This document shows positions 4,558 to 63,962 of a stretch of DNA of 64,000 nucleotides, one piece after another. The DNA is from a virus, in IMG/VR virus record IMGVR_UViG_3300028833_000146, positions 9,322 through 73,321 of that record. The stretch is one strand, 5' to 3'. A model generated the notes under the pieces. The model worked only from the letters and a program-made list of their open reading frames with translations. It did no database searches and was not told where the DNA came from. Each line of letters opens with the position of its first letter. Within the stretch, counting starts at the first letter, position 1. Made by a program: the position numbers and the translations under genes.

Positions 4558-4571
4558 TTTGATTATTCTCC

Positions 4572-4600
4572 TTGCTTACAATGTTTATTAGATGTATAAT
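4572..4600 (+). promoter_or_regulatory. Sigma-A/sigma-70-type promoter TTGCTT-N17-TGTATAAT for the plus-strand lipoprotein gene
   Basis: -35 TTGCTT at 4572-4577, 17-nt spacer ending in TG, -10 TATAAT at 4595-4600, GGAGG RBS at 4619-4623. Confidence 0.5.
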
Positions 4601-4631
4601 TAGACAACAATACTAAATGGAGGCGAAACTT

Positions 4632-6811: not shown

Positions 6812-6814
6812 TGT

Positions 6815-7423
6815 TTATTGCTTTTGGCCTTTCTTCTTAAATAATCCCTTTTTAGATTCGTTCTTACCATTATCTCTAGCTTTTTCAAGCTTATCCTGCT
6901 TCTGCTGCTTGTCATTGGAATTGTTATTACCAATTTTGAAAGCTTTATTCAGTTCGTTGCTCATAACATCTTCAAAGTCTTTACCTGAAAATGCAGAGAT
7001 AGCAAAGGACTTACCTGCTGCCACAAGAGTAGGTTTCAGAACATCATGGACAAGCGCATTTTTAATTGGACCAGACGCTTTTTTACCTTTTTCTTGGTAA
7101 TTCTTTACAAAGTTCTGTTCCATCTGGGCTCTATTATTTAAATCTTTAAGCTCCTGATCCGTAAGAAGGCTAGGCTTCATTTTAGCAAGCTTAGCTCGTT
7201 GCTTAGCTTCATTTTTTCTTTTAGCCATAGCTTCTTTCTCAGACTGCTTTTGAGCTACTTTTAGCTCTCGTTTTTCTTTTGCCTGCTGCTGTTTTGCATA
7301 ACGTATTTTCCCAGCTTCAGTGAGACTTCCGTCTTCATTCTGAAAACGTCTTATACCCCACTTCATACCAAGAATCCCGCTATGCTGCAAATCGCCATCG
7401 GAACGTATGACCCTATATTCCAT
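6815..7423 (-). CDS. GILGQKWGVRR-motif family protein 5 (K/Q-rich coiled coil)
   Basis: Motif HSGILGMKWGIRRFQNEDGSLTEAGKIRY at aa 14-42; immediately upstream of terL. Confidence 0.6.
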   Translation of the reverse strand: MEYRVIRSDGDLQHSGILGMKWGIRRFQNEDGSLTEAGKIRYAKQQQAKEKRELKVAQKQSEKEAMAKRKNEAKQRAKLAKMKPSLLTDQELKDLNNRAQMEQNFVKNYQEKGKKASGPIKNALVHDVLKPTLVAAGKSFAISAFSGKDFEDVMSNELNKAFKIGNNNSNDKQQKQDKLEKARDNGKNESKKGLFKKKGQKQ

Positions 7424-7438
7424 TTTGTTTACCTGCCA

Positions 7439-7945
7439 TCAACATTTATCGTCTGCCATATAAAACAATAGACTTTCTCCATCAGTCTTATATGTCACGT
7501 TAAGATCACTGTCATCGTAATCACATTTTTTAGAAGATTTATTATGACTCTTCCTACTGCAAGATGACCTAGAATTAGAATAATCATCGTACTCGTCCGG
7601 ATCAAAGTTTTTACTACTTTCTGCACTATACAATCGCCATTCTAACTCTTTAATGTTTTCATTAATTGCATTGGCGTGTGCTGAACTCTGTGGTGGATCA
7701 AACATCATGCGCACTTTAAGGGCAATGTAGGTCTTTACGGCTTGTATATCTGTTTTATCATCGAAGAAATCCGACCATCTAGCCGAGGCATCTTCGATCA
7801 TCATAGGAGTATCCGGACCAACTCCCATCTGATGCAGAATCATCAGAACTGAATTAATGTCCATAAGAATATCTGCATCGAAGTACTCGTAATCTTCAGA
7901 TATACCGAGCAATTTCTTTACCGATATTAGAATTGATTCGGACAT
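7439..7945 (-). CDS. Hypothetical protein (acidic C-terminus); function unknown
   Basis: ATG 7945 preceded by GGAGGTGCTC RBS (track GTG at 7951 is less likely). Confidence 0.5.
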   Translation of the reverse strand: MSESILISVKKLLGISEDYEYFDADILMDINSVLMILHQMGVGPDTPMMIEDASARWSDFFDDKTDIQAVKTYIALKVRMMFDPPQSSAHANAINENIKELEWRLYSAESSKNFDPDEYDDYSNSRSSCSRKSHNKSSKKCDYDDSDLNVTYKTDGESLLFYMADDKC

Positions 7946-7962
7946 GAGCACCTCCTAATTGT

Positions 7963-8829
7963 TTATTTATTCTTGGAACGTTCGTAGTTACGCCTGTCCC
8001 AATCATCCATAACTTGATTGTAAAGTTCAAAGCTACGTACACCAGTTTTGGCTTCATTATCTAGCACTTTGTTATACCATTGCTCTCCCTTATCTACAAG
8101 GGCCTTAGTTTTTGGATCTTTTTTTGCATAGTTTTCCCATACATTTAAATCCATGTCCAACGAACCTTTTGAATCTTCAACCCAACGTTTGACGAAATCC
8201 TCTCTGGTTTCATCACCAGCCAGTCCTTCTTTTACACGCCGATCGTACCGTTCGTTAGCTGTTTCAGAAGCATACTTATTATATAGTTTTTCGTCACGGT
8301 GCAATTGTTCATATCTTTTATTAATTTCATCTTCAAGATCGAGTCGCTTTTCATAGTCGTACTTTTTCTTTTGCTCTTCTGATAAAAGACCATACTTGTT
8401 CGGGTTAGTCTTTTTATCATATTGTCTTAAAGCTCGCTCATCTATGCCTTTTTTATTACCTGAATTATACCGTTTCTCTCCAGCAGGAGTGAGAGAACCA
8501 TCTGGATTCTGATACCTACGAACTCCCCACTTCATTCCGAGGATACCATGATGAGCAAGTTCATTAGAAGGAATGTATTTAGAGAATCTATTTACATCAC
8601 CAACAGAAATATCGCTGAAGCTTAGTCCATACTCTTTCATACGTTTAATAATAGCAGAGGCAAGTTCCTTTTCATGTTTCGGATCTACATAATTAAAAAA
8701 CTTAATAGCTGATCGAACATGGTCTGCATCAGGCATTGGAAACTTCTTCTGGCTAGGAACACCATACTTTCTGTCCTGTTCATCCAAAGAACCAATTTTA
8801 ACTGCTCTGTGTATCATATACTGATTCAT
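7963..8829 (-). CDS. GILGQKWGVRR-motif family protein 6 with ~90-aa N-terminal extension
   Basis: Start ATG 8829 with AAGGAGAAAG RBS and ATGA overlap with the HNH gene stop (track start 8865 would translate the RBS); motif HHGILGMKWGVRRYQNPDGSLTPAGEKRY is internal. Confidence 0.55.
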   Translation of the reverse strand: MNQYMIHRAVKIGSLDEQDRKYGVPSQKKFPMPDADHVRSAIKFFNYVDPKHEKELASAIIKRMKEYGLSFSDISVGDVNRFSKYIPSNELAHHGILGMKWGVRRYQNPDGSLTPAGEKRYNSGNKKGIDERALRQYDKKTNPNKYGLLSEEQKKKYDYEKRLDLEDEINKRYEQLHRDEKLYNKYASETANERYDRRVKEGLAGDETREDFVKRWVEDSKGSLDMDLNVWENYAKKDPKTKALVDKGEQWYNKVLDNEAKTGVRSFELYNQVMDDWDRRNYERSKNK

Positions 8830-9260
8830 ATTACTCTTTCTCCTTTGCCTTGTTTCCATGGGCATGTATCATTTTTCTTTCTCTCTATAGGATCTTGTGG
8901 TAGCAAGTCAAAGCTGCCATAGTGAATAGCATTGTGTGTTCTATCCCCAACACAGATTAAGAACTCTGGATTCAATAAAATTTCGCGCTGGTAAATAATG
9001 TCATCTGAATCTACAGGATTCATATGATGCACTATAATTCGGCCAGCTATAGGATAGTTTGCTAATCCAAATTCGCAGCCATTATCGCGGACTATAACGC
9101 TATTTCGAACTCGCTTCCAAATTTCTGTATGATAAAAAGTTTGGTTCAAATATCTCTCGAATCCAAACGTCTCCTGACCAACAAGACCTCCGAGTTTCAG
9201 ATAGTTAAATCTTTCTACTAGAGAAGGAAGCTGAATCAGTTCACTGTAAGTCTTCATCAT
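8826..9260 (-). CDS. HNH endonuclease (packaging-associated)
   Basis: IIVHHMNPV...DRTHNAIH HNH motif; typical position next to the terminase genes. Confidence 0.75.
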   Translation of the reverse strand: MMKTYSELIQLPSLVERFNYLKLGGLVGQETFGFERYLNQTFYHTEIWKRVRNSVIVRDNGCEFGLANYPIAGRIIVHHMNPVDSDDIIYQREILLNPEFLICVGDRTHNAIHYGSFDLLPQDPIERKKNDTCPWKQGKGERVI

Positions 9261-9920: not shown

Positions 9921-10083
9921 GTCTTCCTTTATGTATTATTTAAAGAATCATTTAAAGAGACGTAGGCAGAAAAGCAGAAGAAGTTTCTGTTGGTGTCATT
10001 ACAATCATCTGGAGAGGAGAAAAGCAGGGTCAACCATATTTCAAGAAAAACCTACGTCCCTTTAAATAACTCTCTAAATATAA

Positions 10084-10157
10084 TACCGAGGGAAGGATTC
10101 GAACCTTCGATCATACGATTATAAGTCGTCCGCTCAAACCTACTGAGCTGCCCCGGT
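10084..10157 (-). tRNA. tRNA with anticodon UAU (Ile, AUA-reading)
   Basis: Hand-folded cloverleaf: acceptor ACCGGGG/CCTCGGT (one G-U), D-arm GCTC/GAGC, anticodon loop CTTATAA, T-arm GAAGG-TTCGAAT-CCTTC, discriminator A; 74 nt. Confidence 0.8.
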
Positions 10158-10211
10158 AAAAACATTCTCAAAAATATCCCTCCGGAGAAATTCCGAAGAG
10201 GCCGGCGATGT

Positions 10212-44414: not shown

Positions 44415-45485
44415 TCAATCATAAAATGACAAAATATTAGTCTGAACGTTGAAGTCCATAATGTAGCATTTGCGAAGTTCGTATTTGCAAGTATTCTCGT
44501 TGTATTCTTCATACATTACCGGAAACAGTTCAATACGAATTCCTTCATCTAAATATCGTTTTTCACCAGTGTGAGGATCCACAGCTACAAATCTCATCTC
44601 TCTTGTCTCAGGATCGATTTCGGCATGGTATCCCATGATTTGTCCAGCTGCAGTTCTCTTAAAGCCAAGCTCTTTGAGAATATCATTCAAGGCATAAGTG
44701 TGCCTGTAGCTGTATCTAATCTGTCTATTAAAGTATGTTTCCCAGTCTCGAACGAACTTGTTATTGTAAATATAATTTTCTTTAAGTGTCTTAGGATCAT
44801 ACTCGAATTCTTCTGTATGCTCGGCGTCAAATATCTGTGCATACATGGAGTGCTTAGCAAGTTCCTCACTAAGTACTTCCTGCTTAGTACGTCTGATCTT
44901 CGGTTTTCCTTCACGATCAAGTTTCGGCTCACCGTTCTTGTTTGTCTCTACTTCTTCGTATTCTCTTTCAGTAATACCATAATAGAGCTTTCGTTCCTCG
45001 TCATCTCCAACTTTGTCCCTGACACGATCACGGTATCCAGCAAGTGTGCTCGCATAAAGGCCACATGTTTCAATCGCATTAGACAGCCTATCGCTAATAA
45101 TGCCAACGCCTTTGCCGATTAAACCAAGCGAAACAATCTCTAATCCGACAGCCGGGCCTATAACTTTGCAAATTTTCAGGCCGCCATTAGCATAGGCTTC
45201 ACAAAGAAGAACCCAGCCTTTCTTGCCAGCTTCCTCGAGCTTTTCGCGATCTTTTGCTGTTTCTCTAGCTTCTGAAATATCATTCTTGACTTCTTCGATG
45301 GTTTCCTTAGTCTCTTTACCTGCTTTCCAGGCAAGGTACGCAGAAGCGACAGAGCCTATCATGCCAAGCGTTACATAAATAATAGGTTTTGACTGGTAGA
45401 GTTTATTTGTCGCCTTATTTACGAGGGCACTTTCGATGAGCTTGTTCTTAATACTCATAATATGTTTACTTCCTTTCAAGAGCAT
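44415..45485 (-). CDS. Two-TM membrane protein, family member A
   Basis: Two N-terminal TM helices plus a soluble domain ending ...ALNDILKELGF; paralogous to 46342, 47496 and 48371. Confidence 0.5.
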   Translation of the reverse strand: MLLKGSKHIMSIKNKLIESALVNKATNKLYQSKPIIYVTLGMIGSVASAYLAWKAGKETKETIEEVKNDISEARETAKDREKLEEAGKKGWVLLCEAYANGGLKICKVIGPAVGLEIVSLGLIGKGVGIISDRLSNAIETCGLYASTLAGYRDRVRDKVGDDEERKLYYGITEREYEEVETNKNGEPKLDREGKPKIRRTKQEVLSEELAKHSMYAQIFDAEHTEEFEYDPKTLKENYIYNNKFVRDWETYFNRQIRYSYRHTYALNDILKELGFKRTAAGQIMGYHAEIDPETREMRFVAVDPHTGEKRYLDEGIRIELFPVMYEEYNENTCKYELRKCYIMDFNVQTNILSFYD

Positions 45486-45486
45486 G

Positions 45487-45702
45487 TTACATTTGTGACA
45501 GAATATTCATCTGCCCTGGAATTTGTTTTTCTTGTTTTTTCATTCGGGGTTTATTTGTAGCTATTCTCCGTTTTGTATGCGATTTGTAGATGGCATAGAT
45601 CTGATTATCGGGCATGTCTATAATCTTCTGATTACGAATATAACCACGAGGATACATCGTCATCAATTTTTCACGCATATTAATGATTTCTTTATTTTTC
45701 AT
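45487..45702 (-). CDS. Small basic protein
   Basis: 71-aa ORF. Confidence 0.35.
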   Translation of the reverse strand: MKNKEIINMREKLMTMYPRGYIRNQKIIDMPDNQIYAIYKSHTKRRIATNKPRMKKQEKQIPGQMNILSQM

Positions 45703-45705
45703 ATA

Positions 45706-46323
45706 TTACCTATTGATAGGCTTAGCCTTTGGCAAATCGATTATATACTCGCCGTCGAAGTTGCGTTTGACCATCGCGCCGCTAAGATCGTTCCAACCGT
45801 AGTTATTACTTGTCCAGTTCGGTTGAGACATGTTTGAAAACTCATACATTTGCGCAACCGTAACATACGGATAAACTCGCAGATGTTCTTTCATAGCCAT
45901 CAAAACAAGCTCCGCATCTCCTTTAGATTCATATGAAAGATCATCGCATATAAACGCACTAGAAACACTTGGAGTAGGAGAATTTTGTTTCTTAGAAAAA
46001 CTGTTATAAGAAACCCTGTCGCCTATTCTTCTACTGCTAGTACTTGGCCGATAGTCTCCAAATATCATCATCTGGAAACTACTCTCAATTGTGCCGACGA
46101 TACCCTCTATAATATCGTAGAAGAGATCTTTAACTTTAGGGGCGATTATGTCGTTAATCACCCCATCACGAATATCACGGAAATCGTTTTGAATTAAAAA
46201 GCCCTTGACACCTTTTGGTGTTTGGGGCTTTGTTTTAGGAGTGCTAGTAATCACACTAGACACTTTCACGTCTTCATTGTTTTGTGCCGAAGGCATATCT
46301 ATGTTTGTCGGGTAATCGTTCAT
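45706..46323 (-). CDS. Hypothetical protein
   Basis: 205-aa ORF. Confidence 0.45.
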   Translation of the reverse strand: MNDYPTNIDMPSAQNNEDVKVSSVITSTPKTKPQTPKGVKGFLIQNDFRDIRDGVINDIIAPKVKDLFYDIIEGIVGTIESSFQMMIFGDYRPSTSSRRIGDRVSYNSFSKKQNSPTPSVSSAFICDDLSYESKGDAELVLMAMKEHLRVYPYVTVAQMYEFSNMSQPNWTSNNYGWNDLSGAMVKRNFDGEYIIDLPKAKPINR

Positions 46324-46341
46324 TTTTGTTTACGCCCTTTC

Positions 46342-47235
46342 TCATATGGAATACGGAATATAATTCGGTCCATTCCTAAATCGGATTACTTTATACGTAA
46401 ATCCTTGATCAGTAATGTTAATGTCGCCAGAGAACTGACAATATTCAACAAGCCCATCATTCACGTTAAATCCGAATTCTTCACCAAGTCCTGTCATGTC
46501 TAACCCAAGAATAGAATAATACTCGTTCAGTTTAACGTAACAATCATCGACACCGTAATAGCATCCTCTACCATAGCGAATATCATTGATTCTCATATTA
46601 AGTTCATTAAGGCACGAGTCTATGAACGCTGGACTTGCTTTGACCCATCTCTTTGTATAATAGTCCAAATATAACTGGGATCCTGTTCCAGTATCAAACA
46701 CGTTAGTGAGCCCATCTTCACTTCTATTTCGTGAAACATGCTGCTCTGCTGCTCGCTCCTCAATTTCATCGGCTTTCTCATCACCAAGAAGTTCTCTTGC
46801 TGCCGCTTTTGTGTCTTTGGAATCAGCGATATAATACGCGAGTGCTGTTGCCATCGACGACAGACGGTCCGTATTTTCTTTCTGAGCAAGAAGTAAAAAT
46901 ATAACACCGGCAGACTGAGCAAGAAGCGGAAGGATCCAATATTTGTACACTTCTGGAACTGCTTCTTTTACAGGAATCGGAGATGCAACAATTTCATCAT
47001 ACTTTTCCTGATCCTCATCGGATAAGTTTTCGTACTCCGACGGATCAGCGAGAATATCATTAAGTTTTTCCGCCTTCATGTCCGCCGTTTTGTTCATAGT
47101 TTTTACGGTTGCCATAACAGCCAACGCACTTCCGGTTATCATTAACACGATTCCGGTGCCAGTCATAATAGCAGGTCTGTTCTGAACAAATGAAGCTTTC
47201 ATAGAATTAAATGCGCTTTTTACATCAAATTTCAT
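46342..47235 (-). CDS. Two-TM membrane protein, family member B
   Basis: MKFDVKSAFNS... two TM helices; C-terminal LNEYYSILGLD. Confidence 0.5.
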   Translation of the reverse strand: MKFDVKSAFNSMKASFVQNRPAIMTGTGIVLMITGSALAVMATVKTMNKTADMKAEKLNDILADPSEYENLSDEDQEKYDEIVASPIPVKEAVPEVYKYWILPLLAQSAGVIFLLLAQKENTDRLSSMATALAYYIADSKDTKAAARELLGDEKADEIEERAAEQHVSRNRSEDGLTNVFDTGTGSQLYLDYYTKRWVKASPAFIDSCLNELNMRINDIRYGRGCYYGVDDCYVKLNEYYSILGLDMTGLGEEFGFNVNDGLVEYCQFSGDINITDQGFTYKVIRFRNGPNYIPYSI

Positions 47236-47247
47236 GCTTTTCTCCTT

Positions 47248-47281
47248 TTAAGATAAAAATATGGAGTCTGTAAAAGACTCC
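47248..47281 (-). terminator. Hairpin terminator with loop TGTAAAA
   Basis: GGAGTCTGTAAAAGACTCC followed by a T-rich run on the minus strand. Confidence 0.4.
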
Positions 47282-47287
47282 GATTTC

Positions 47288-47443
47288 TTAGTATTGGTTT
47301 CCCTCTTCAGTCGTTTCTACATCTTTCTTCTTTGCTTCGCGTATCGTCTTTACTGCTCCTGTTACGCCTGTATAAATCTGCGTAGCGCCGATAATCGCAG
47401 TAGCAATACACGCCGTCAAACCAACGATCATAGTTACTGACAT
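47288..47443 (-). CDS. Small membrane protein (51 aa), not in ORF track
   Basis: TAGGAGGTTTATATTTT-ATG 47443; MSVTMIVGLTACIATAIIGATQIYTGV... Confidence 0.4.
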   Translation of the reverse strand: MSVTMIVGLTACIATAIIGATQIYTGVTGAVKTIREAKKKDVETTEEGNQY

Positions 47444-47465
47444 AAAATATAAACCTCCTATAATG

Positions 47466-47495
47466 TTCTATTATGAACTCTGTAAAATTTACGAA
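47466..47495 (-). promoter_or_regulatory. Conserved phage promoter-like motif
   Basis: plus strand TTCTATTATGAACTCTGTAAAATTTACGAA. Confidence 0.5.
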
Positions 47496-48359
47496 TTAAG
47501 ACTCAGAAATAAACCACTCGTAGATCTCATCGAATGTCGGCTCAGAATCAAATATAATTAAATACCCGTACGTCCCATCATCAAAATAAATCTTCTTATG
47601 TGTAAAGCCAACCCAGTCATACCCGTTATCGAACCCCGCTTCTTTCGACCAACCATCACCATCTCCGTATGACACTTTGTCCGCTCCAAACATTGTTAAT
47701 AGCTCATTAAGACTAGCAAATTCCCCGTTGCGATCATTCCATAAGAACTTATTAAACGCATACTCTGCCATCAGAACTTCAAGCATCGTTGATTTGAACC
47801 ACATTCGATCACCATCATCTGAGTTTACGCCTTCGATATAGAATGTCATCTCATTGCCATAATCCTCGTGCTGTAGATCATCATCACTAAAATATAAATG
47901 ATGCGGCTTATTAAAAATCTGGTTTTTATCTTCCGGTTTCTTATCTCTTAATTCAGAAGCGAGAGCTCCAACTGCAAAGCCTTTGTACTTATCTAATCGT
48001 GCGGACTGATTATTAACAATTTGTTCGAGAGAGCCAACGGATTCGAGCGCCTTTGTATTTCCACGGCGAATGCACCACGATGTTCCAAATGCTGCAAGAA
48101 CTGGCGGTGTAAATATCACTGCAGTGCCAATAATTTCTTTAATTTTTTCTTTTAAAGAAAGTTCTTTGAATTTTTTCGGAACTGTAGATGACTCTGTGAT
48201 ATTGTCTTTAGAGCCCATTTCCCATTCCATCCACTTTGTTGTAGAAACAAATGTTAGAACTCCAGTTGCAGCTACTCCAGCAATACTATACCATGAAAAT
48301 GCGGTAGGAGATATAGCTTTAGTTTTAACTGTGGATAATAGGTCTTTAAAATTGATCAT
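47496..48359 (-). CDS. Two-TM membrane protein, family member C
   Basis: MINFKDLLSTVKTKAISPTAF...; ...TMLEVLMAEYAFNKF...NELLTMFGAD. Confidence 0.5.
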   Translation of the reverse strand: MINFKDLLSTVKTKAISPTAFSWYSIAGVAATGVLTFVSTTKWMEWEMGSKDNITESSTVPKKFKELSLKEKIKEIIGTAVIFTPPVLAAFGTSWCIRRGNTKALESVGSLEQIVNNQSARLDKYKGFAVGALASELRDKKPEDKNQIFNKPHHLYFSDDDLQHEDYGNEMTFYIEGVNSDDGDRMWFKSTMLEVLMAEYAFNKFLWNDRNGEFASLNELLTMFGADKVSYGDGDGWSKEAGFDNGYDWVGFTHKKIYFDDGTYGYLIIFDSEPTFDEIYEWFISES

Positions 48360-48370
48360 CGTTTCTCCTT

Positions 48371-49189
48371 TTACTCACGAGGATGATTATAAAGCGGCAT
48401 TGATCCGCCAAAGAACGGATCAGAATACGAGACACAATAATCACTGAAACTAGGGGGATCAATATAATCTACAGACACAATTTTTTCTCCGATTTCTTCG
48501 TCAAATATCCACGAATGCTTAAAGTGGATCCATTGAACTTCTCCGCCCCAATCTTCGATCATCTTCTCATAAGTCCATCCTAGTTTGTCATACTCTTCTC
48601 GGCACTGATCTAAAATATCAAGAAGCTCGAAGAAGTCATATACAGAAACTGATCCATAGCCTTCTGAGAATCTCTGGTTAAGCGCATACTCTGCAAATAT
48701 AACGTCTGCCATAGTAGACTGAAAATAGACAATATGATCTGCTGTTCCGCAAACGCTAAACCACTGCAGGCCTTCTTCTGGTTTCTTATGACTAAAATCT
48801 TTTAGCACCTCTGCCGCGGCTAAAGCAGGAGCCGTTGATCTTAGTGTTCTTAATCGATTCTGAGTATTCGTAGCGACAGAATTAATCACGCCAGTATAGT
48901 CGATCCACTTAGTTTCTGCTTTGTTGATGCAATACACTGTAGCGATCGCAGTTACTATTGTAGGAATATAATTTCTGACAACCGTTCGAATCTCCTCTGC
49001 CGTTTCTTCTGGAGTAGACTCTTTTTCTAAATTTTCACCCTGGGATTTTTTCTCATATTCGTGCTCGCATTGTTTTCTAGTGTTAAGAATTGCCATTGTG
49101 ATCGTAGCACCAACTCCAAACAGCGCATAAGTAGCAAACGCTTTCGGAGACGTTGCCCTATCAAACAGCCCTTTTAGATTAATTCTCAT
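48371..49189 (-). CDS. Two-TM membrane protein, family member D
   Basis: MRINLKGLFDRATSPKAF...; ...TMADVIFAEYALNQRF...FFELLDILD. Confidence 0.5.
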   Translation of the reverse strand: MRINLKGLFDRATSPKAFATYALFGVGATITMAILNTRKQCEHEYEKKSQGENLEKESTPEETAEEIRTVVRNYIPTIVTAIATVYCINKAETKWIDYTGVINSVATNTQNRLRTLRSTAPALAAAEVLKDFSHKKPEEGLQWFSVCGTADHIVYFQSTMADVIFAEYALNQRFSEGYGSVSVYDFFELLDILDQCREEYDKLGWTYEKMIEDWGGEVQWIHFKHSWIFDEEIGEKIVSVDYIDPPSFSDYCVSYSDPFFGGSMPLYNHPRE

Positions 49190-56639: not shown

Positions 56640-56966
56640 TCACTTCATAAAACTTGTGTCATAATATGGCGGGAACGTGATTGTGAACTTATATGAATCA
56701 TCAGACCCAACATAAAAATAAATATTGTCTTTATTCATTCGATCTTTAAACATAATCCTCTTCAGATTAAAACGAAGATCGTCTGAAATTTGGATCTTCA
56801 TTTTATCGCAGAGTGCCGAAATACTTACATACCCTTTAGCCGCAAGAAGATCATTGTATTCTCTAATAAACTCTATCGCTGCCTCTTCATCTCGGAAATT
56901 AAATTGGTCCAAAATATCATTCACTTTATCCTGTGTATGGTATGAAAGCGCATATTTAGTTACCAT
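56640..56966 (-). CDS. Hypothetical protein
   Basis: 108-aa ORF. Confidence 0.4.
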   Translation of the reverse strand: MVTKYALSYHTQDKVNDILDQFNFRDEEAAIEFIREYNDLLAAKGYVSISALCDKMKIQISDDLRFNLKRIMFKDRMNKDNIYFYVGSDDSYKFTITFPPYYDTSFMK

Positions 56967-58215
56967 TCTTTTTCTCCTCTTTTATTTCTTTAATCGCGTC
57001 GTTCAATTCGCACCAAGCTATTCCAGCCCCTATCATTTCTGGTCCCTCTTTGAAAATATCATTCGCTAAACCACTGACCATGCGTACTACATAACTTCTT
57101 GGGACGCATCGTAGATTTGAAAGCTCACAGTTTTGTTTATTCCCGTCCAAGAATATAATGCAATGATCTTCCGGAATAGAGCCATTGGCTTGCTCCCAAA
57201 TATAACGGTGTTTTGTTACCCAATTCTCTCGCCAATTTTTTGTTGAGTCATTTACTGGAATATCTGAAAGTTTTATCCAAATATAGCCGCTGTTAACTAT
57301 CTCAGTTCCAATGGGTTTAGTGTTTGTTGCAACAGGGGGCTTCTTAGGAATCTGTGTTCTTCCTTCTTTTTCTCTCAAGTTTCTGATTCTTCCGAAAACG
57401 CTATCCATGCTAAGTTTTATACCAAATTTATCTGACATGTCTTCAGCAAGTTGCGAATAAAACATATTCTGGTAATTGTCTAGTAGGTACTTGTCCATAT
57501 CATCGGTCCATCGCACTTTGCGTCTTAAGTTTAACCTGGTTACTTTGTTATTAATGCTATTCTCAGTCATCTGAACGTTAAACTTCTTGGACATAGTTGT
57601 AGCCAGCTCTTCATAGGTCATATATTCAAAATTATCAATAAGAAACTGGATCATTTCGTCGGTCCAATATGTCTTTCCTTTATGGCCCTTTTTAAAGATG
57701 TTGGGATCTTTTTTCAAACGCATTTGTCTAAGCTGATACGAAATACCCCATACAGTAATTGAGAGATTGAACTTTTCGGACATCTCAATAGCTAAATCTT
57801 CGTATTTCATCTTGGCATAATTATTAGCTAAAAACTCGCGCATTTCATCAGTCCAAATACTACTGTTATTCTGAGTTAATCCTAATTTCCGTAACTTATG
57901 CCCTATGCTTTCTTCGTTCATCGGAACGCCATATCTTTCAGACATAATAGATGCAAGATCTTTATGAAGCATGGACCCATAATTATCAACAAGAAACCGA
58001 ACCATTTTGTCGGTCCAATAAGATTTTCCTTTACATCCTTTTTTCAGCCCTAACTGACCAAGCTTTCTAGAAATATAATTATGATCCATAACTACACAGA
58101 ACTTTTCACTCATTACAGCAGCTAGATCGTCATAGTTCATTAAAGTATAGTTGCTGGACAGAAATTGGATCATCTCCTCTGTCCAGCGAACATCTGACCG
58201 TCTATTTCTACTCAT
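56956..58215 (-). CDS. HNH endonuclease with five tandem Myb/SANT-like DNA-binding repeats (homing-endonuclease-like)
   Basis: Five ~50-60-aa repeats WT(D/E)(D/E)M..FL..NY..M.Y..LA..MS.KF...; C-terminal HNH (IIFLDGNKQNCELSNLRCV); start ATG 58215 overlaps the upstream stop, since the track start 58302 adds a junk hydrophobic N-terminus inside the upstream gene. Confidence 0.6.
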   Translation of the reverse strand: MSRNRRSDVRWTEEMIQFLSSNYTLMNYDDLAAVMSEKFCVVMDHNYISRKLGQLGLKKGCKGKSYWTDKMVRFLVDNYGSMLHKDLASIMSERYGVPMNEESIGHKLRKLGLTQNNSSIWTDEMREFLANNYAKMKYEDLAIEMSEKFNLSITVWGISYQLRQMRLKKDPNIFKKGHKGKTYWTDEMIQFLIDNFEYMTYEELATTMSKKFNVQMTENSINNKVTRLNLRRKVRWTDDMDKYLLDNYQNMFYSQLAEDMSDKFGIKLSMDSVFGRIRNLREKEGRTQIPKKPPVATNTKPIGTEIVNSGYIWIKLSDIPVNDSTKNWRENWVTKHRYIWEQANGSIPEDHCIIFLDGNKQNCELSNLRCVPRSYVVRMVSGLANDIFKEGPEMIGAGIAWCELNDAIKEIKEEKKNGN

Positions 58216-58465
58216 CGGCAGCCACCAAAATCGCAATCTCAGAAGATTTAGGCAGCTTCTGCTCATAAACAAGCTTCTGAGCGCGCAGGATAACATCCGC
58301 ATTATTTATCATCTGCTTTGAAAGGCTAGAAAAGACCGCTGCAGAATCAAGAACTTTCTTCTGCGTTTCTCTCGGCAGGTTCTCGCTATCTTTTACCTTT
58401 TTAAGTTCTTCTCCGAGCATGTTATGCAGATCGATAAGATTCATTCTCTTTCTCCTTTTTAGCAC
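58208..58465 (-). CDS. Hypothetical protein
   Basis: 85-aa ORF. Confidence 0.45.
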   Translation of the reverse strand: MLKRRKRMNLIDLHNMLGEELKKVKDSENLPRETQKKVLDSAAVFSSLSKQMINNADVILRAQKLVYEQKLPKSSEIAILVAADE

Positions 58466-60299: not shown

Positions 60300-60323
60300 A
60301 ATCTACCTCCAAATATAATAGTA

Positions 60324-60352
60324 TTTCATTATATTAGCTGTAAAAAATACGG
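60324..60352 (-). promoter_or_regulatory. Conserved phage promoter-like motif
   Basis: plus strand TTTCATTATATTAGCTGTAAAAAATACGG. Confidence 0.5.
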
Positions 60353-60367
60353 GGCATGTAAAGCCCC
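60340..60367 (-). terminator. Hairpin terminator whose T-run overlaps the next promoter motif
   Basis: GGGGCATGTAAAGCCCC then a T-run on the minus strand. Confidence 0.45.
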
Positions 60368-60377
60368 AAATATAAAA

Positions 60378-60542
60378 CTACTCTTTATTTACATTCAGTA
60401 TATCGTTAACCTGCTTCTCTGTAAGTCCGGTTTTCAACGCGATCCAGCCATAAGTATAGCCTTTCTGTCTAAAACGCTCGATCTCGTTGGCTAACTTAGC
60501 TGATACTGTCGTACCGTTTCTTTTAATAGTTTTTACAGACAT
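60378..60542 (-). CDS. Small HTH DNA-binding protein (Cro/excisionase-like size)
   Basis: ATG 60542 after GGAGGTATTGTC; GYTYGWIALKTGLTEKQVNDIL. Confidence 0.5.
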   Translation of the reverse strand: MSVKTIKRNGTTVSAKLANEIERFRQKGYTYGWIALKTGLTEKQVNDILNVNKE

Positions 60543-60570
60543 GACAATACCTCCAAAATATAAATAATTA

Positions 60571-60599
60571 TTCACTATACAGCCTGTAAAAATTACGAA
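60571..60599 (-). promoter_or_regulatory. Conserved phage promoter-like motif
   Basis: plus strand TTCACTATACAGCCTGTAAAAATTACGAA. Confidence 0.5.
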
Positions 60600-60643
60600 A
60601 TTATTAATTATAGATGACAAAATTATTACATAACAGTCTGTTT

Positions 60644-60699
60644 CTATCCTAGATTAAGTGGTATACTCCTCTCGTGCGCACGGATTTAATCTAGAATAG
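60644..60699. promoter_or_regulatory. Operator-like inverted repeat flanking an extended -10 promoter for the plus-strand gene
   Basis: Arms CTATCCTAGATTAA (60644-60657) and TTAATCTAGAATAG (60686-60699) match 13 of 14 as an inverted repeat; between them TGgTATACT (extended -10, 60659-60667) and the palindrome CGTGCGCACG (60673-60682); the right arm overlaps the AGGAG RBS of 60711..61112. Confidence 0.5.
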
Positions 60700-60710
60700 G
60701 AGAAATATAA

Positions 60711-61112
60711 ATGAATCAGAGATCTGTTATTTCGCAAAAGAACAAATATTGGATCCCAAAACACAGGTACCTTGAACTTAAGCACTATTGCATGCAATAT
60801 CCTGAGTGGAAATCGGCTTTAAGATCAATCGCTCTTCTGCAAGCGCATTCCGATAAAATATCTGCTGATGGTTTTTCAGATCCAACAAACAGCATTGCTA
60901 TAAAAGAACTTAAATATAAAGAAAAGATGCAACTTGTTGAGTCTGTAGCCATTCAAACAGATCCCGAAATAGCTAAGTGGATCATCGAAGGAGTCATCAA
61001 CAGTTACAGCTATGAATATTTAAAATATCAACTTGGACTTCCTGCGGGACGAGACCTATACTACGACCGGTATCGTAAATTCTTCTGGCTTTTAGATCAA
61101 CGCAAAGCATAA
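60711..61112 (+). CDS. Hypothetical protein on the opposite strand (switch or moron gene)
   Basis: AGGAG RBS 8 nt before ATG 60711; 133 aa; only plus-strand gene in the region; divergent from the HTH gene. Confidence 0.55.
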   Translation: MNQRSVISQKNKYWIPKHRYLELKHYCMQYPEWKSALRSIALLQAHSDKISADGFSDPTNSIAIKELKYKEKMQLVESVAIQTDPEIAKWIIEGVINSYSYEYLKYQLGLPAGRDLYYDRYRKFFWLLDQRKA

Positions 61113-61144
61113 AAAAAAAGAGGGAGGCATCTGTAGCGTCCCTC
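61111..61144 (-). terminator. Intrinsic terminator
   Basis: GAGGGAGGCATCTGTAGCGTCCCTC, T9 on the minus strand. Confidence 0.55.
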
Positions 61145-61151
61145 TATAATC

Positions 61152-61460
61152 TCATGCTACAGGTGTCTCCACCTCTGGTACTGAAATATCATTCTCTACT
61201 GGAATCTCAGTGCTAGGGATTTCAGGATCAACTGGAGTTGAGGTCATCTCCGTTGCTTTCATGATCGCAATCGCCGCAGTAGCAGCGGCAGTAGCGACGC
61301 CAATATAGCTGCATACAGTCGCAACCGTCTTACCGACTGGTTTACGATCTCCTTTGGCAGCTTCTCGCTTAGCTTTTCGCTCTGCCCTCTTCTCTGCGCG
61401 GATTGTTTTCCGTTCAGCATGGTTGGCCTTAATAGCTCCAAAATTAATCACTTTTTCCAT
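61152..61460 (-). CDS. Basic protein with C-terminal TM helix
   Basis: ATG 61460 after AAAGGAATTACTATT (track TTG at 61544 is less likely). Confidence 0.45.
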   Translation of the reverse strand: MEKVINFGAIKANHAERKTIRAEKRAERKAKREAAKGDRKPVGKTVATVCSYIGVATAAATAAIAIMKATEMTSTPVDPEIPSTEIPVENDISVPEVETPVA

Positions 61461-61495
61461 AATAGTAATTCCTTTCTTTAAAAAATATTTAGTAT

Positions 61496-61524
61496 CCATT
61501 ATAGAAACTGTATTTTTTACGAAT
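61496..61524 (-). promoter_or_regulatory. Conserved phage promoter-like motif
   Basis: plus strand TCCATTATAGAAACTGTATTTTTTACGAA. Confidence 0.5.
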
Positions 61525-61552
61525 AAAAAATGAGGCCGTTGCAAACAGCCTC
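61524..61552 (-). terminator. Intrinsic terminator
   Basis: GAGGCCGTTGCAAACAGCCTC then a T-run on the minus strand. Confidence 0.5.
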
Positions 61553-61562
61553 GAACTGGGAA

Positions 61563-61739
61563 TCATTCGTCGCTATGTCGTCTCATAGAAGAATCAACTA
61601 ATTTGCAGATTCCAAATATCGCTGCGCCTGGAATCTTGAATGCACAAAATACAACAACCATTGACAAAAACCAATAATCCAGCATCGCTCGCCATATATA
61701 ACCTGCTATTTCTTTTGCCTTTTCTACAAAATCATACAT
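61563..61739 (-). CDS. Small membrane protein
   Basis: ATG 61739 after TTTAGGAGGTATTATT; MYDFVEKAKEIAGYIW... with a TM helix. Confidence 0.4.
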   Translation of the reverse strand: MYDFVEKAKEIAGYIWRAMLDYWFLSMVVVFCAFKIPGAAIFGICKLVDSSMRRHSDE

Positions 61740-61762
61740 AATAATACCTCCTAAAATATAGA

Positions 61763-61792
61763 TTCCATTATATAATCTGTACTTTTTTCGAA
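61763..61792 (-). promoter_or_regulatory. Conserved phage promoter-like motif
   Basis: plus strand TTCCATTATATAATCTGTACTTTTTTCGAA. Confidence 0.5.
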
Positions 61793-61830
61793 AGAGTAAG
61801 GCTATGTAAGCCAAACTCTTTCTAAAGTAA

Positions 61831-62055
61831 TTATTTAATTCCAATGTAATCGCCGTATTCATCGTATTCGCTTTCATCACAGCTATCACCGGCTAACGTG
61901 TCGAAACCGAGAACTAGCAGGGTAATCCCAAGGCCTAATTCTATTCCCTGTACCATATCTACCTTGGTCTCCCATACAAGTGCTCCGGTAATCGCCATTA
62001 TCACCCAAACAGCTAAAACCAGCATAACTCCAATAAATTTTGTTGATTTTTTCAT
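61831..62055 (-). CDS. Small membrane protein
   Basis: ATG 62055 after AAAGGAGATTATAAA; MKKSTKFIGVMLVLAVWVIMAITGALVW... Confidence 0.45.
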   Translation of the reverse strand: MKKSTKFIGVMLVLAVWVIMAITGALVWETKVDMVQGIELGLGITLLVLGFDTLAGDSCDESEYDEYGDYIGIK

Positions 62056-62080
62056 TTTATAATCTCCTTTAAAAGTATTT

Positions 62081-62110
62081 CTTTCATTAAAGAGACTGTA
62101 AAATTTACGG
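62081..62110 (-). promoter_or_regulatory. Conserved phage promoter-like motif
   Basis: plus strand CTTTCATTAAAGAGACTGTAAAATTTACGG. Confidence 0.5.
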
Positions 62111-62136
62111 CAAAAAAGAGGGCAATGTAAGCCCTC
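62111..62136 (-). terminator. Intrinsic terminator (loop ATGTAAG)
   Basis: GAGGGCAATGTAAGCCCTC then T6 on the minus strand; overlaps the stop codon of 62135..62293. Confidence 0.5.
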
Positions 62137-62293
62137 AGTCCTTCCTTTTCTTATCCCCAATATCTAATCGGCGAAACTTTTCCTTATTATAACTTCGTAC
62201 GACCTTCGATACGATCAACGATAATAGCATAGTAGCCACTATGACTATTAGTATGAACATAAAAATTGTCGATTTGTTTGCAATAATTATCAT
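62135..62293 (-). CDS. Small membrane protein (52 aa), not in ORF track
   Basis: TAAAAGGAGAATACTCT-ATG 62293; MIIIANKSTIFMFILIVIVATMLLSLIV... Confidence 0.4.
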   Translation of the reverse strand: MIIIANKSTIFMFILIVIVATMLLSLIVSKVVRSYNKEKFRRLDIGDKKRKD

Positions 62294-62317
62294 AGAGTAT
62301 TCTCCTTTTAAATATTA

Positions 62318-62347
62318 TTTCATTAAAGAGCTTGTAAATTTTACGAA
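62318..62347 (-). promoter_or_regulatory. Conserved phage promoter-like motif
   Basis: plus strand TTTCATTAAAGAGCTTGTAAATTTTACGAA. Confidence 0.5.
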
Positions 62348-62399
62348 AAAATAAAAGTGCCTGTTTTCTTTTATTACGGACCAGATTACCCGTTAATCT

Positions 62400-62545
62400 G
62401 CTTTACTTCACACTGCGTTGGTCAGTAAGCCCGTAACCAGTTCGGTCAAAACTGGCGAGTAGCATGACCGTGCTACTCTGGAAGCTTCCTTTTCCCAAGG
62501 AATTTAATGCCGCCACGTTTCGTTTTCGTCGCCCAGCAACTTCTT
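62400..62545 (-). ncRNA. Candidate structured ncRNA (~145 nt) driven by a conserved promoter motif
   Basis: GC-richer than flanks; no RBS or credible ATG after the promoter at 62548-62577; perfect local stems in the sense RNA: GAGUAGCA-CGGUCA-UGCUACUC, CCAGUU-UUGACCG-AACUGG, CAGAUUA-ACGGG-UAAUCUG; the 70-aa track ORF 62403..62615 starts with TTG inside the upstream terminator and looks spurious. Confidence 0.3.
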
Positions 62546-62547
62546 TC

Positions 62548-62577
62548 TTTTCATTATAGGACCTGTATTTTTTACGA
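62548..62577 (-). promoter_or_regulatory. Conserved phage promoter-like motif
   Basis: plus strand TTTCATTATAGGACCTGTATTTTTTACGAA. Confidence 0.5.
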
Positions 62578-62580
62578 AAT

Positions 62581-62613
62581 ATAAAAACTAAGGGAGGTGT
62601 AATCCTACCTCCC
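62581..62613 (-). terminator. Intrinsic terminator (loop GTGTAATCC)
   Basis: GGGAGGTGTAATCCTACCTCCC then a T-rich run on the minus strand. Confidence 0.5.
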
Positions 62614-62826
62614 AATGCTTTGCCAAAAACTAACTATACCATCAATAAAATCGCTAACTTCTACACAAGTAAGCTTATCGCCGCTAGCAGCCAGCATTAG
62701 TTCATTAGCATGTTTTAAAGCGTTCATAGTGCCATTCTCGTATCCCCAACTATACATTTCGAATGCACCTAATGCCAAACAAGCAATAAATATCAATGCC
62801 AGCAGCACATTAAATAATCTACTCAT
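62605..62826 (-). CDS. Small membrane protein
   Basis: AAGGAGG RBS; MSRLFNVLLALIFIACLALGAF... Confidence 0.45.
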   Translation of the reverse strand: MSRLFNVLLALIFIACLALGAFEMYSWGYENGTMNALKHANELMLAASGDKLTCVEVSDFIDGIVSFWQSIGR

Positions 62827-62858
62827 AAAAATGCCTCCTTATTTGATAAAGTATTATG

Positions 62859-62888
62859 TTTTCATAATATAAGATGTAATATTTACGG
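62859..62888 (-). promoter_or_regulatory. Conserved phage promoter-like motif
   Basis: plus strand TTTTCATAATATAAGATGTAATATTTACGG. Confidence 0.5.
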
Positions 62889-62890
62889 AC

Positions 62891-62920
62891 AAAAAAATGA
62901 GGGGCGCTGTAATACCCCTC
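62891..62920 (-). terminator. Intrinsic terminator (loop GCTGTAATAC)
   Basis: GAGGGGCGCTGTAATACCCCTC then T7 on the minus strand. Confidence 0.5.
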
Positions 62921-62927
62921 GTCCTCA

Positions 62928-63077
62928 TTAGTCATCTTCGTACAATACCTTATCGGACCACTTACGTATAAACTTTCCGTAACTTTTAGGGAACGCGTAC
63001 ATCCAAATTATCATGGCAACTCCGGCCACGAAACTGAACAGATAAGTAATCCCTGCAATTTTCATAAATTTACTCAT
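62928..63077 (-). CDS. Small membrane protein (49 aa), not in ORF track
   Basis: AAAGGAGAACCATT-ATG 63077; MSKFMKIAGITYLFSFVAGVAMIIWMYAF... Confidence 0.4.
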   Translation of the reverse strand: MSKFMKIAGITYLFSFVAGVAMIIWMYAFPKSYGKFIRKWSDKVLYEDD

Positions 63078-63100
63078 AATGGTTCTCCTTTAAAATAGTA

Positions 63101-63130
63101 TTTTCATTATAAGAGCTGTAATTTTTATCC
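63101..63130 (-). promoter_or_regulatory. Conserved phage promoter-like motif
   Basis: plus strand TTTTCATTATAAGAGCTGTAATTTTTATCC. Confidence 0.5.
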
Positions 63131-63144
63131 CCCCCCCGATTTTG

Positions 63145-63173
63145 ATGAAAAATGAGGGGAGTTGTATCCCCTC
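63145..63173 (-). terminator. Intrinsic terminator (loop GTTGTA)
   Basis: GAGGGGAGTTGTATCCCCTC then a T-run on the minus strand. Confidence 0.5.
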
Positions 63174-63185
63174 TTGCTCCTCCTT

Positions 63186-63344
63186 TCAATCGTAATCCCA
63201 ATCCATGCCATCATAGCTGGATCCATAATCACAAGTAGCCCCATAACCTCTGAGGTCAACAATAGAATCTTTTGTCTCCACGTACATTACCATGTGAGTT
63301 CTCGAATCGTACATCGTTACCATCTGAATGCTGGGGTTTTCCAT
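63186..63344 (-). CDS. Small acidic protein (52 aa), not in ORF track
   Basis: TTTGGAGGATTATATT-ATG 63344; MENPSIQMVTMYDSRTHMVMYVETKDSIVDLRGYGATCDYGSSYDGMDWDYD. Confidence 0.35.
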   Translation of the reverse strand: MENPSIQMVTMYDSRTHMVMYVETKDSIVDLRGYGATCDYGSSYDGMDWDYD

Positions 63345-63380
63345 AATATAATCCTCCAAAATGATGTGATTTGAGATTTA

Positions 63381-63410
63381 TTTCTCATTATAGAAACTGT
63401 AATTTTTGCG
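63381..63410 (-). promoter_or_regulatory. Conserved phage promoter-like motif
   Basis: plus strand TTTCTCATTATAGAAACTGTAATTTTTGCG. Confidence 0.5.
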
Positions 63411-63434
63411 TATTATGTAAACTTATAGAAAAAA

Positions 63435-63520
63435 ATAGCCGTTGTGGAATTGAACCACTTCTCATCCGGCGTTTTTCGTTCGACTATTCCCGATGCGCAT
63501 TTACCGTAATGCTAATGGCT
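63435..63520 (-). ncRNA. tRNA-like ncRNA (acceptor, D- and T-arms recognisable; anticodon arm aberrant)
   Basis: Sense RNA AGCCAUUAGCAUUACGGUAAAUGCGCAUCGGGAAUAGUCGAACGAAAAACGCCGGAUGAGAAGUGGUUCAAUUCCACAACGGCUA followed by U7: acceptor AGCCAUU/AACGGCU (6 of 7), D-arm GCAUU-ACGGUA-AAUGC, T-arm GUGG-UUCAAUU-CCAC, central CAUCGG/CCGGAUG helix closing a 20-nt loop; sits between its own promoter motif and a U-run; no protein-coding potential. Confidence 0.35.
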
Positions 63521-63526
63521 ATTTTT

Positions 63527-63557
63527 CTTTCATTATATGCATTGTAAAATTTGCGAA
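63527..63557 (-). promoter_or_regulatory. Conserved phage promoter-like motif
   Basis: plus strand CTTTCATTATATGCATTGTAAAATTTGCGAA. Confidence 0.5.
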
Positions 63558-63582
63558 AAAGAGAGCCTGTGTAAGAGCTCTC
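63556..63582 (-). terminator. Intrinsic terminator (loop CTGTGTAAG)
   Basis: GAGAGCCTGTGTAAGAGCTCTC then T5 on the minus strand. Confidence 0.5.
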
Positions 63583-63590
63583 GACTCGTA

Positions 63591-63962
63591 TTATTTCAAC
63601 AACTTCATACTTGCCAGGATCTGAGCCATTGATTCGCCATTCGAGCGTCTCTGGTCAATTTCCAGCGCTTCACTAGGTTTAAGCTTTCTATTAAGCTCGT
63701 GATAATAACCGAGCGAACGATCGTAAATATAAAGATCTTTCAGGTCCTGTTCCTTCTTCAGGTCGATCTTCCGGTCAACAGACTTAGCAATTCCGCTAAC
63801 TGTCTTAATAACCGTAATCCCTACCGGAATTAGAATTCCTGCTGTAATCTCTTTGTTTTCCTTCATCCACTCAATTGCCTGACGAGTCTTGTACTTCGCT
63901 TTAAATGTAAAGCCTGTCCATCTCGCATTCATTTCGCTCTTGATGTCTTCAAATGATTTCAT
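63591..63962 (-). CDS. Hypothetical protein with central TM helix
   Basis: ATG 63962 seven nt after GGAGG; TATAAT -10 at 63992-63997 on the minus strand. Confidence 0.45.
   Translation of the reverse strand: MKSFEDIKSEMNARWTGFTFKAKYKTRQAIEWMKENKEITAGILIPVGITVIKTVSGIAKSVDRKIDLKKEQDLKDLYIYDRSLGYYHELNRKLKPSEALEIDQRRSNGESMAQILASMKLLK

Follow-up and report, generated by a model that had tools for sequence, protein, structure and literature searches.

The tRNA-like RNA gene and its transcription unit

The window analysed here is a 64,000-nucleotide (nt) stretch of phage DNA, positions 9,322 to 73,321 of IMG/VR virus record IMGVR_UViG_3300028833_000146. Near its end, an 87-nt sequence of the minus strand (63435-63521) folds as a tRNA-like cloverleaf in which the anticodon arm is replaced. 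On that strand it reads UAGCCAUUAGCAUUACGGUAAAUGCGCAUCGGGAAUAGUCGAACGAAAAACGCCGGAUGAGAAGUGGUUCAAUUCCACAACGGCUAU, after which more U residues make up a U-rich tail. The only open reading frames that overlap it are antisense and encode 43–58 amino acids (aa). An earlier note on this DNA had described a stand-alone, promoter-driven, non-coding tRNA-like RNA with a replaced anticodon arm, a description that the present analysis bears out. The locus contains the following features, given in the direction of transcription.

63561-63582, minus strand: intrinsic terminator of the upstream 123-aa gene (63591-63962), a 7-base-pair (bp) stem with four G-C pairs, then a T run
63531-63547, minus strand: phage promoter motif TTACAATGCATATAATG, with the -10 box at 63532-63537
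63515-63521, minus strand: 5' acceptor strand UAGCCAU (sequence, RNAfold and covariation)
63497-63512, minus strand: D arm GCAUU-ACGGUA-AAUGC, which contains the tRNA-elbow GG (sequence and RNAfold)
63463-63495, minus strand: expanded arm replacing the anticodon arm, its stem formed by 63490-63495 with 63463-63469, one G bulged
63470-63489, minus strand: 20-nt loop of the expanded arm, closed by CAUC-GG / CC-g-GAUG (4+2 pairs, 6 bp)
63444-63458, minus strand: T arm GUGG-UUCAAUU-CCAC (sequence and RNAfold)
63436-63442, minus strand: 3' acceptor strand ACGGCUA, no CCA encoded (sequence, RNAfold and model alignment)
63429-63435, minus strand: U7 tract immediately 3' of the acceptor stem, including the discriminator U (sequence)

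The minimum-free-energy structure predicted by RNAfold is this cloverleaf exactly (-22.3 kcal/mol, 44% of the ensemble), with the acceptor helix, D arm, T arm and 20-nt-loop helix that had been drawn by eye from the sequence. The acceptor stem UAGCCAU/ACGGCUA has the 7-bp length of a tRNA and forms six of the seven pairs, leaving one A.C mismatch, and U 63514 could add an eighth pair with A 63443. A D arm with G18-G19 and a T arm with a UUCRANY loop are present as in tRNA, while the 5-bp anticodon stem and 7-nt loop with U33 are absent. Comparison of the folding energy with shuffled sequences had been suggested as a check and gives a z-score of -1.96, with 5 of 200 shuffles equally stable; a signal is present, although modest.

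Standard detectors pass over this RNA. ARAGORN makes no call at default settings, and a 351-nt stretch around it (63300-63650) yields no match to the RNA in Rfam, including the tRNA family RF00005, at the gathering threshold (29 bits) or at E <= 10. The canonical tRNA-Ile(UAU) that the phage also carries is recognised both by ARAGORN and by Rfam (60.7 bits) at 10083-10158 on the minus strand. A transfer-messenger RNA (tmRNA) was considered and rejected, as ARAGORN -m with a lowered threshold finds no tmRNA or tag-frame match and Rfam has no tmRNA match either. A Y RNA of the YrlA type was likewise rejected; the ends close an acceptor stem here and there is no Rfam match. Run in relaxed mode (-i, -ps80), ARAGORN proposes a sub-threshold tRNA-Tyr(AUA) with a 14-nt intron, an anticodon loop GAAUAGC without U33 and an insert at 38/39. 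This call is the point in favour of a tRNA that still decodes and has either an intron or an enlarged anticodon loop, a reading that is barely credible. Apart from scoring below threshold and lacking U33, the ARAGORN model puts a G.G into the anticodon stem, and its intron site is non-canonical (38/39, not 37/38). Bacteria are not known to have small tRNA introns of this type. The same reading is already contradicted by the relatives described below, which have no anticodon loop.

The phage promoter proposed upstream of the RNA is real and its site can be refined to 63531-63547. The motif TTACA-N5-TATAATG occurs at 13 sites in the window against 0.7 expected, a count reached by 0 of 100 shuffles, and 11 of the 13 are grouped on the minus strand at 60.3-63.6 kb. 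It is also found upstream of every variant of the RNA in sibling phages. Transcription would start at ~63525 (63524-63526), judging by the usual ~7-nt distance from the -10 box, giving a leader of 3–5 A residues. The terminator of the upstream gene, which is kept in relatives, sets the RNA gene apart as its own transcription unit. At the other end, the U7 tract is found in all variants of the window clade and is the likely termination point, to judge by its sequence.

From 60 to 64 kb, small genes follow one another in a row, and every one of them carries this promoter and ends in a hairpin terminator. The RNA gene is placed in a variable region of such single-gene promoter-terminator units that adjoins an integrase. 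The run of small minus-strand genes at 60300-63600 looks like an early or accessory module. The promoter itself is unusual, as only 5 nt separate the boxes of TTACA-N5-TATAATG, a misfit to a normal -35/-10 promoter, and the upstream box of this compact promoter may be read by something else.

Variants of the RNA in sibling phages

The 123-aa protein encoded upstream has 45 homologues, from 98% down to ~42% identity, on metagenomic contigs that come from ruminant gut surveys judging by their record names (loci are referred to below by L numbers). An integrase lies ~1 kb upstream in each locus long enough to show it, and the same string of small promoter-driven genes follows downstream of the slot. 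Identical copies of the window phage itself are present in L001 and L002. Behind the 123-aa gene (protein 71–98% identical), the slot holds the RNA in L004, L005, L008, L011, L027, L031-35, L038, L157, and L158. It is empty in L012, where the flanking genes are retained.

The sibling variants are 64–66 nt long, and a 3–4-bp stem with a tetraloop (GAAA or UUCG) replaces the anticodon arm. The variants in L005, L157, L004, L027, L158, and L031-35 read UAGCUAUUAGCAUUACGGUAAAUGCG-CGU-GAAA-ACG-AGAAGCGGU(C/U)CAACUCCGCAACGGCUAU. L038 carries the acceptor UAAUUAU/ACGGUUA and the stub CUC-GAAA-GAG. The stub is CC(C)-GAAA-(U)GG in L008, CUG-GAAA-CAG in L011, and CCAC-UUCG-GUGG in L023, which was found in IMG/VR. 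L011 and L023 pass the Rfam tRNA model (49.5 and 53.4 bits, respectively; cut-off 29) with the anticodon loop aligned as a deletion. Read from the sequence, the 33-nt arm of the window RNA is an expansion of this stub and not an intron; its first three pairs (C-G, A-U, U-A) are homologous to those of the siblings' stub (C-G, G-C, U-A), after which it extends. An intron-containing tRNA had been one suggestion of the earlier note, and it fails on the siblings, which carry a 3–4-bp tetraloop-capped stub at this point and no anticodon loop whatever.

The slot can hold other RNAs. In L003:2934-3066, L007:1185-1312 and L004:3513-3642 it contains an unrelated RNA of ~125 nt with its own promoter and U tract, which has no Rfam match at E <= 1 and folds weakly better than shuffles (z = -1.2). 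In L159:1521-1715, where the flanking protein is 95% identical, the slot RNA is ~195 nt and begins with a long 5' hairpin domain of ~120 nt. Its 3' module (1641-1706) is a different anticodon-less tRNA-like RNA with the acceptor AUAGGAA/UUCCUAU and the stub CUU-AAUU-GAG, scoring 32.5 bits as tRNA and 28.2 bits on the Rfam model SpF41, which is discussed below. Because L159 fills the same slot with an unrelated anticodon-less tRNA-like RNA, selection appears to act on an RNA of this kind. A further arrangement is seen in L158:713-778, L004:3925-3990, L031:1655-1722 and L027, where a three-way-junction domain of ~65 nt, with the closing stem GAAGAGG/CCUCUU and two hairpins, stands between the promoter and the tRNA-like module; the two-module transcript as a whole has z = -2.5.

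These extensions bear on the idea that the RNA is a base-pairing or protein-binding small RNA (sRNA) built on a tRNA scaffold, with the 20-nt loop or the 5'/3' extensions as the active part. The single-stranded loop lies exactly at the insert position of engineered tRNA scaffolds, and the 65-nt domain precedes the module in L158, L031, and L004, as the ~120-nt domain does in L159. A study of Bacillus cereus tRNA-Other likewise proposes that an element resembling tRNA lies inside a larger regulatory RNA (PMC3399842). However, in most relatives (L005, L157, L038, L011) the 64–66-nt module is bare, its tetraloop closed and any extension missing, so that it appears to stand alone in most of them. 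The loop also has no antisense match above chance in the 64-kb window, the best run being 13 including G-U against 12–15 in shuffles. The scaffold idea is therefore considered unlikely, and the sequence of the 20-nt loop is phage-specific and probably not the conserved active part.

Covariation and covariance models

The structure was examined in a plain MAFFT alignment of 11 relatives, from which the window sequence was excluded, using the cloverleaf without its anticodon arm. Standard pairs fill 86.1% of cells, versus 36–57% when the 3' partners are slid by 1–3 columns, and the covariation score is 0.654 versus at most 0.235 for the slid versions; 0 of 500 shuffles reach the observed values. 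Both sides vary across relatives in 13 of the 19 pairs. The stub helix is 93.9% paired, with two of its three pairs varying on both sides, while the D stem is 100% paired in relatives and its pair 12-23 flips from A-U to U-A in L008 and L011. In the acceptor, L038 changes G3-C70 to A-U and two C-G pairs to U.G, and L005 also shows covariation. In the T stem, GUGG/CCAC is replaced by GCGG/CCGC in L005 and by GAGG/CCUC in L008. All four helices covary, and an alignment fitted with a covariance model agrees. The earlier note had stated that an absence of covariation in related phages would speak against a structured RNA, and compensatory changes are found in every helix. Its suggestion of a degenerate tRNA, in the sense of decay, is unlikely since the stub itself covaries.

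The conserved positions are those of the elbow and core: U8, G10, C11, GG, G53, U54, C56, A57, A58, and C61. The search pattern fixed some bases (TAGCWT, WGCGC and GGTYCAAHTCC), and the invariance of these among the members from IMG/VR is partly by construction. The A6.C67 mismatch is retained in the four window-like variants (window, L005, L031, L038). Across the relatives, the acceptor varies freely in sequence and in its mismatches, as does the discriminator.

A covariance model built from relatives without the window sequence (R2), whose seed does include close relatives, finds 63435-63521 on the minus strand with 56.5 bits (E 2.5e-19), the sole match below E = 0.1 in the 64 kb. In the R2 alignment the window RNA carries an insertion of 27 nt relative to the 4-nt loop of the relatives.

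These patterns can be set against two readings without a function in trans. The first is a non-functional remnant, either a decaying phage tRNA gene or an attP-like tRNA fragment left near the integrase by integration. The integrase does lie ~1 kb upstream in relatives, integration-derived tRNA gene fragments are common (PMC9897764), and some anticodon-less copies sit inside phage tRNA arrays (L015, L017, L019). However, integration leaves only a duplicated partial copy (PMC9897764), whereas here both halves of the cloverleaf are present under a promoter of their own. Compensatory changes affect all helices including the stub, and close phages differ by such changes. Tetraloop caps recur in separate lineages, and the slot in L159 holds an unrelated anticodon-less module. 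Taken together, a remnant is very improbable.

The second is a cis element, such as a structured terminator or insulator between early units or a processing signal for RNase P or RNase Z, without function in trans. The U tract directly follows the acceptor stem, an A-rich leader and a U-rich tail flank the element, and the early region is composed of promoter-terminator units; in L011 and L023 the T arm with its U-rich tail could itself be a terminator. Neighbouring units, on the other hand, use simple G+C hairpin terminators, and the upstream gene terminates before the promoter of the RNA, a dedicated promoter that serves this RNA only. Termination does not need a conserved GG, UUCAA or D stem, and L012 keeps the flanking genes without the element. 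A role purely in cis is accordingly given little chance.

Identity and possible role

The locus is very probably a separately transcribed phage gene for a tRNA-derived RNA unable to decode, an identification made from sequence comparison. Lacking an anticodon, the window RNA should be incapable of decoding, and enzymes that read the tRNA body would be expected to recognise it. What it does is more tentative. In the favoured reading, the RNA would be transcribed early from its own phage promoter, with termination at the U tract. Its ends would then be handled by the host tRNA and sRNA machinery, namely RNase P, RNase Z with CCA addition, and a 3' exonuclease, and the tRNA fold would confer stability. 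The RNA would act in trans by occupying a host or phage factor that reads the elbow or the acceptor-T arm rather than the anticodon, so its role would be that of a decoy or competitor outside translation. Such a trans-acting mimic of the tRNA body is a possibility held at somewhat less than even confidence. The best explanation as a whole, identity and mechanism together, is put at about an even chance.

The free variation of the acceptor, its mismatches and the discriminator speaks against a fixed aminoacylation identity. This bears on another proposal, in which the RNA is an aminoacyl carrier, cut by RNase Z, given CCA, charged by an anticodon-blind synthetase and used as donor by a non-ribosomal transferase that has cell wall, lipid, protein or DNA as its target. 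A precedent is provided by the non-proteinogenic tRNAGly of staphylococci. The acceptor stem, the elbow and a single-stranded 3' end are kept in the window, L005, and L038, and loss of the anticodon would exclude the RNA from the ribosome. Reactions that depend on aminoacyl-tRNA are also known in phages, as with Mu Mom, which uses Gly-tRNA (PMC13219725). Conversely, no identity set is conserved, as the relatives differ in pairs 1-72, 2-71 and 3-70 and in the discriminator, and L008, L011, and L023 have an acceptor that is degenerate or may not be transcribed. The G3.U70 identity of alanyl-tRNA synthetase was considered and dropped, as it occurs only in L011. Pfam scans of 28 window proteins identify no GNAT, Fem or transferase-like gene. 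An aminoacyl carrier is thus regarded as improbable.

Several observations weigh against the trans-acting mimic as well. The same Pfam scans find no tRNA-handling gene and identify no partner protein. The -10 box of L011 and L023 lies immediately against the presumed 5' acceptor strand; these RNAs may start at about U8 and lack an acceptor stem, with the T arm and U-rich tail as terminator. The acceptor of L008 is degenerate, and there the molecule could be closed by a pairing of leader and trailer instead (GAUAGA/UCUAUC). An acceptor end may thus be dispensable, and the likely functional core is the elbow of D arm and T arm, because the acceptor is possibly missing in L011 and L023 and degenerate in L008. 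T-loop position 55 varies between U and C, an unusual trait if the RNA is to be read as a genuine tRNA. The long arm occurs only in the identical copies L001 and L002, leaving its stem without covariation support, and the thermodynamic signal, modest in the window RNA, is weaker in the short variants (z of -0.1 to -1.0). A covariance model made from five members outside the window clade (R3) gives the window RNA 29.1 bits, within the 17–35 bits that genuine tRNAs obtain. The wider class from which these members come may be polyphyletic, with more than one origin, although it is clearly tRNA-derived. Finally, the recovery of RNase Z with F41, an RNA of related architecture described below, is not specific, as RNase Z was also recovered with unrelated csRNAs (PMC7196914).

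Anticodon-less tRNA-like RNAs in other phages

A pattern of D arm and T arm spaced too closely for an anticodon arm finds 10 loci in IMG/VR. Most of them (L015, L017-L019, and L021-L023) allow a drawing in which the acceptor, D and T stems are paired and a short stub is closed, while L014/L020 and L016 are less regular. Some lie within phage tRNA arrays (L015, L017, L019) and others are isolated genes that have a promoter and terminator of their own. L162:8032-8115 came from a second IMG/VR scan, which looked for long central arms; it has a 4-bp stem with a 21-nt loop and no ARAGORN call. Similar uncalled genes are L166:4745-4827, L176, L172:388-465, L174:5636-5721, L179:3041-3111, and L181:4571-4656. 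Genes of the L162 type have good acceptor, D and T arms and non-decoding central arms, with loops of 10–22 nt or long hairpins.

Other searches gave little. Megablast and blastn of the locus against the phage database returned nothing relevant, and a query with L023 was likewise empty. In IMG/VR, the exact D-arm...T-arm pattern gave 0 matches and a search by neighbouring proteins no relatives. A metagenome scan with the 19-nt D arm recovered one true relative (L027) and six chance matches within genes, and missed the L001 contig. A pattern scan of genome contigs produced 118 matches (L039-L156), mostly bacterial tRNA-Leu false positives; the real ones are L083, in a Streptococcus hyovaginalis prophage, and perhaps L100. 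The anticodon arm of tRNA-Leu (CUAGCUUNAGGUGCUAGCGC) imitates a D arm, which is a pitfall for repeat searches. Full-text literature searching found no description of anticodon-less or tRNA-mimic phage RNAs as a class.

It is conceivable, if rather doubtful, that phages of several lineages repeatedly make such 'headless' tRNAs, in which the acceptor, D arm and T arm stay and a tetraloop stub or a foreign loop takes the place of the anticodon loop, as a dedicated class of trans-acting mimics. The lineages to which this speculative grouping would extend are temperate phages of rumen Lachnospiraceae type, Streptococcus phages and satellites (SpF41), and jumbo phages with tRNA arrays. Headless tRNAs could possibly divert host immune effectors or enzymes, among them CCA-modifying toxins, nucleases of the acceptor or T loop, RNase P or RNase Z, and T-box leaders. 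If this is true, the class has been overlooked and is invisible to tRNA finders. Phage tRNA genes are usually explained by codon usage or as replacements for tRNAs cut by host anticodon nucleases. A tRNA body without an anticodon fits neither explanation and, if the reading holds, would represent a third use of phage tRNA mimicry.

Other genes of the window

At 56956-58302 on the minus strand, in the interval that separates the replication genes from the early small-gene module, lies the gene of a 448-aa protein; it contains repeated helix-turn-helix-like units and, at its C terminus, an HNH endonuclease domain. Four paralogous DUF6353 proteins (356, 297, 287, and 272 aa) lie in tandem at 44415-49189, also on the minus strand. 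Four proteins at 2671-8865 have a short DUF7211 motif in common.

Comparison with known systems

Compared with a tRNA, the RNA has the acceptor, D and T arms together with U8, G10, G18-G19, U54, C56, and A58. It encodes no CCA, as is the case for many Firmicutes tRNA genes. It differs in lacking an anticodon arm and loop, in the conserved A.C mismatch of the acceptor, and in position 55, which is U or C in relatives. The tRNA-like domain of tmRNA and the RNA YrlA likewise lack an anticodon and mimic tRNA by means of the T arm, D loop and acceptor. However, tmRNA has a tag reading frame and pseudoknots, and YrlA has its ends at the anticodon side and a Ro-binding stem.

The work on B. cereus tRNA-Other describes an RNA that is also tRNA-derived, lies on or adjoining a mobile element, is non-translational and has a regulatory phenotype (PMC3399842). 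According to the same work, it differs in flanking a chromosomal pathogenicity island and in being expressed within larger RNAs extended at both ends. A drawing of the window clade is further possible in which the acceptor has 8 bp, the linker 1 nt, the D stem 5 bp and the T stem 4 bp; it resembles the (8/4) allo-tRNAs (Mukai et al. 2017, PMC5389517). Those are found in phages and rumen Clostridia, and the window clade shares their habitat judging by record names suggestive of rumen metagenomes. Allo-tRNAs, in contrast, possess anticodons and many decode, and the 8/4 drawing made here comes from invariant bases only and is to be taken as a lead.

The closest described relative by architecture is SpF41 (RF02435), the sRNA F41 or srn277 of S. 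pneumoniae TIGR4, for which a Northern signal was reported (PMC3395615). An F41 deletion mutant was attenuated in sepsis progression, and transposon mutants were less fit in nasopharynx and blood (PMC3395615). F41 is present in 4 of 385 strains (PMC12323649). It sediments in light fractions, and F41 pull-downs recover RNase Z and the 3'-5' exonuclease Cbf1; it is also the top-enriched non-coding RNA in Cbf1 crosslinking and immunoprecipitation, and its 3' end is trimmed in vivo by Cbf1 (PMC7196914). These three papers do not describe F41 as tRNA-like or phage-borne (PMC3395615, PMC7196914, PMC12323649).

Here, SpF41-like sequences are nevertheless found in 17 records of Streptococcus phages, among them A25 and a satellite, where they are unannotated or overlapped by 'hypothetical protein' calls. 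In phage A25 (L160, KT388093.1 11752-11858), SpF41 lies directly upstream of terS and overlaps the 3' end of such a call. The satellite Javan160 carries SpF41 at L161:3006-3071 and a weaker second tRNA-like match at 3160-3226. Among the wider set of loci, L018, L022, and L083 score 73–84 bits on the SpF41 model (cut-off 52), with 84 for L083 and 73.5 for L018, while L023 reaches 35.9. For annotation this means that ARAGORN misses such genes, and in deposited genomes spurious 'hypothetical protein' calls lie over them.

The likeness between SpF41 and the window RNA extends over the acceptor-like closing stem, the D region with GG, the T arm (GGUUCRAAUCC in SpF41), an own promoter and carriage by phages. 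The Rfam consensus also has a short hairpin with a 4-nt loop in the position of the anticodon arm, as do the sibling variants. The window RNA gives no match to the SpF41 model at E <= 10 and the short variants of its clade none at E <= 1, and because of this it is not assigned as a member. SpF41 also has a separate 3' terminator hairpin, whereas the U tract of the window RNA directly follows the acceptor; it lies just upstream of terS and not in the early region near the integrase; and it carries a stub in place of the 33-nt arm. The link is of value as F41 has a reported virulence phenotype and known binding partners without a mechanism; being phage-borne and of the same architectural class, it offers an experimental system. 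What the comparison adds is that RNAs of the SpF41 kind can be described as tRNAs without an anticodon that recur across phages, among which the window RNA is distinctive by its expanded arm.

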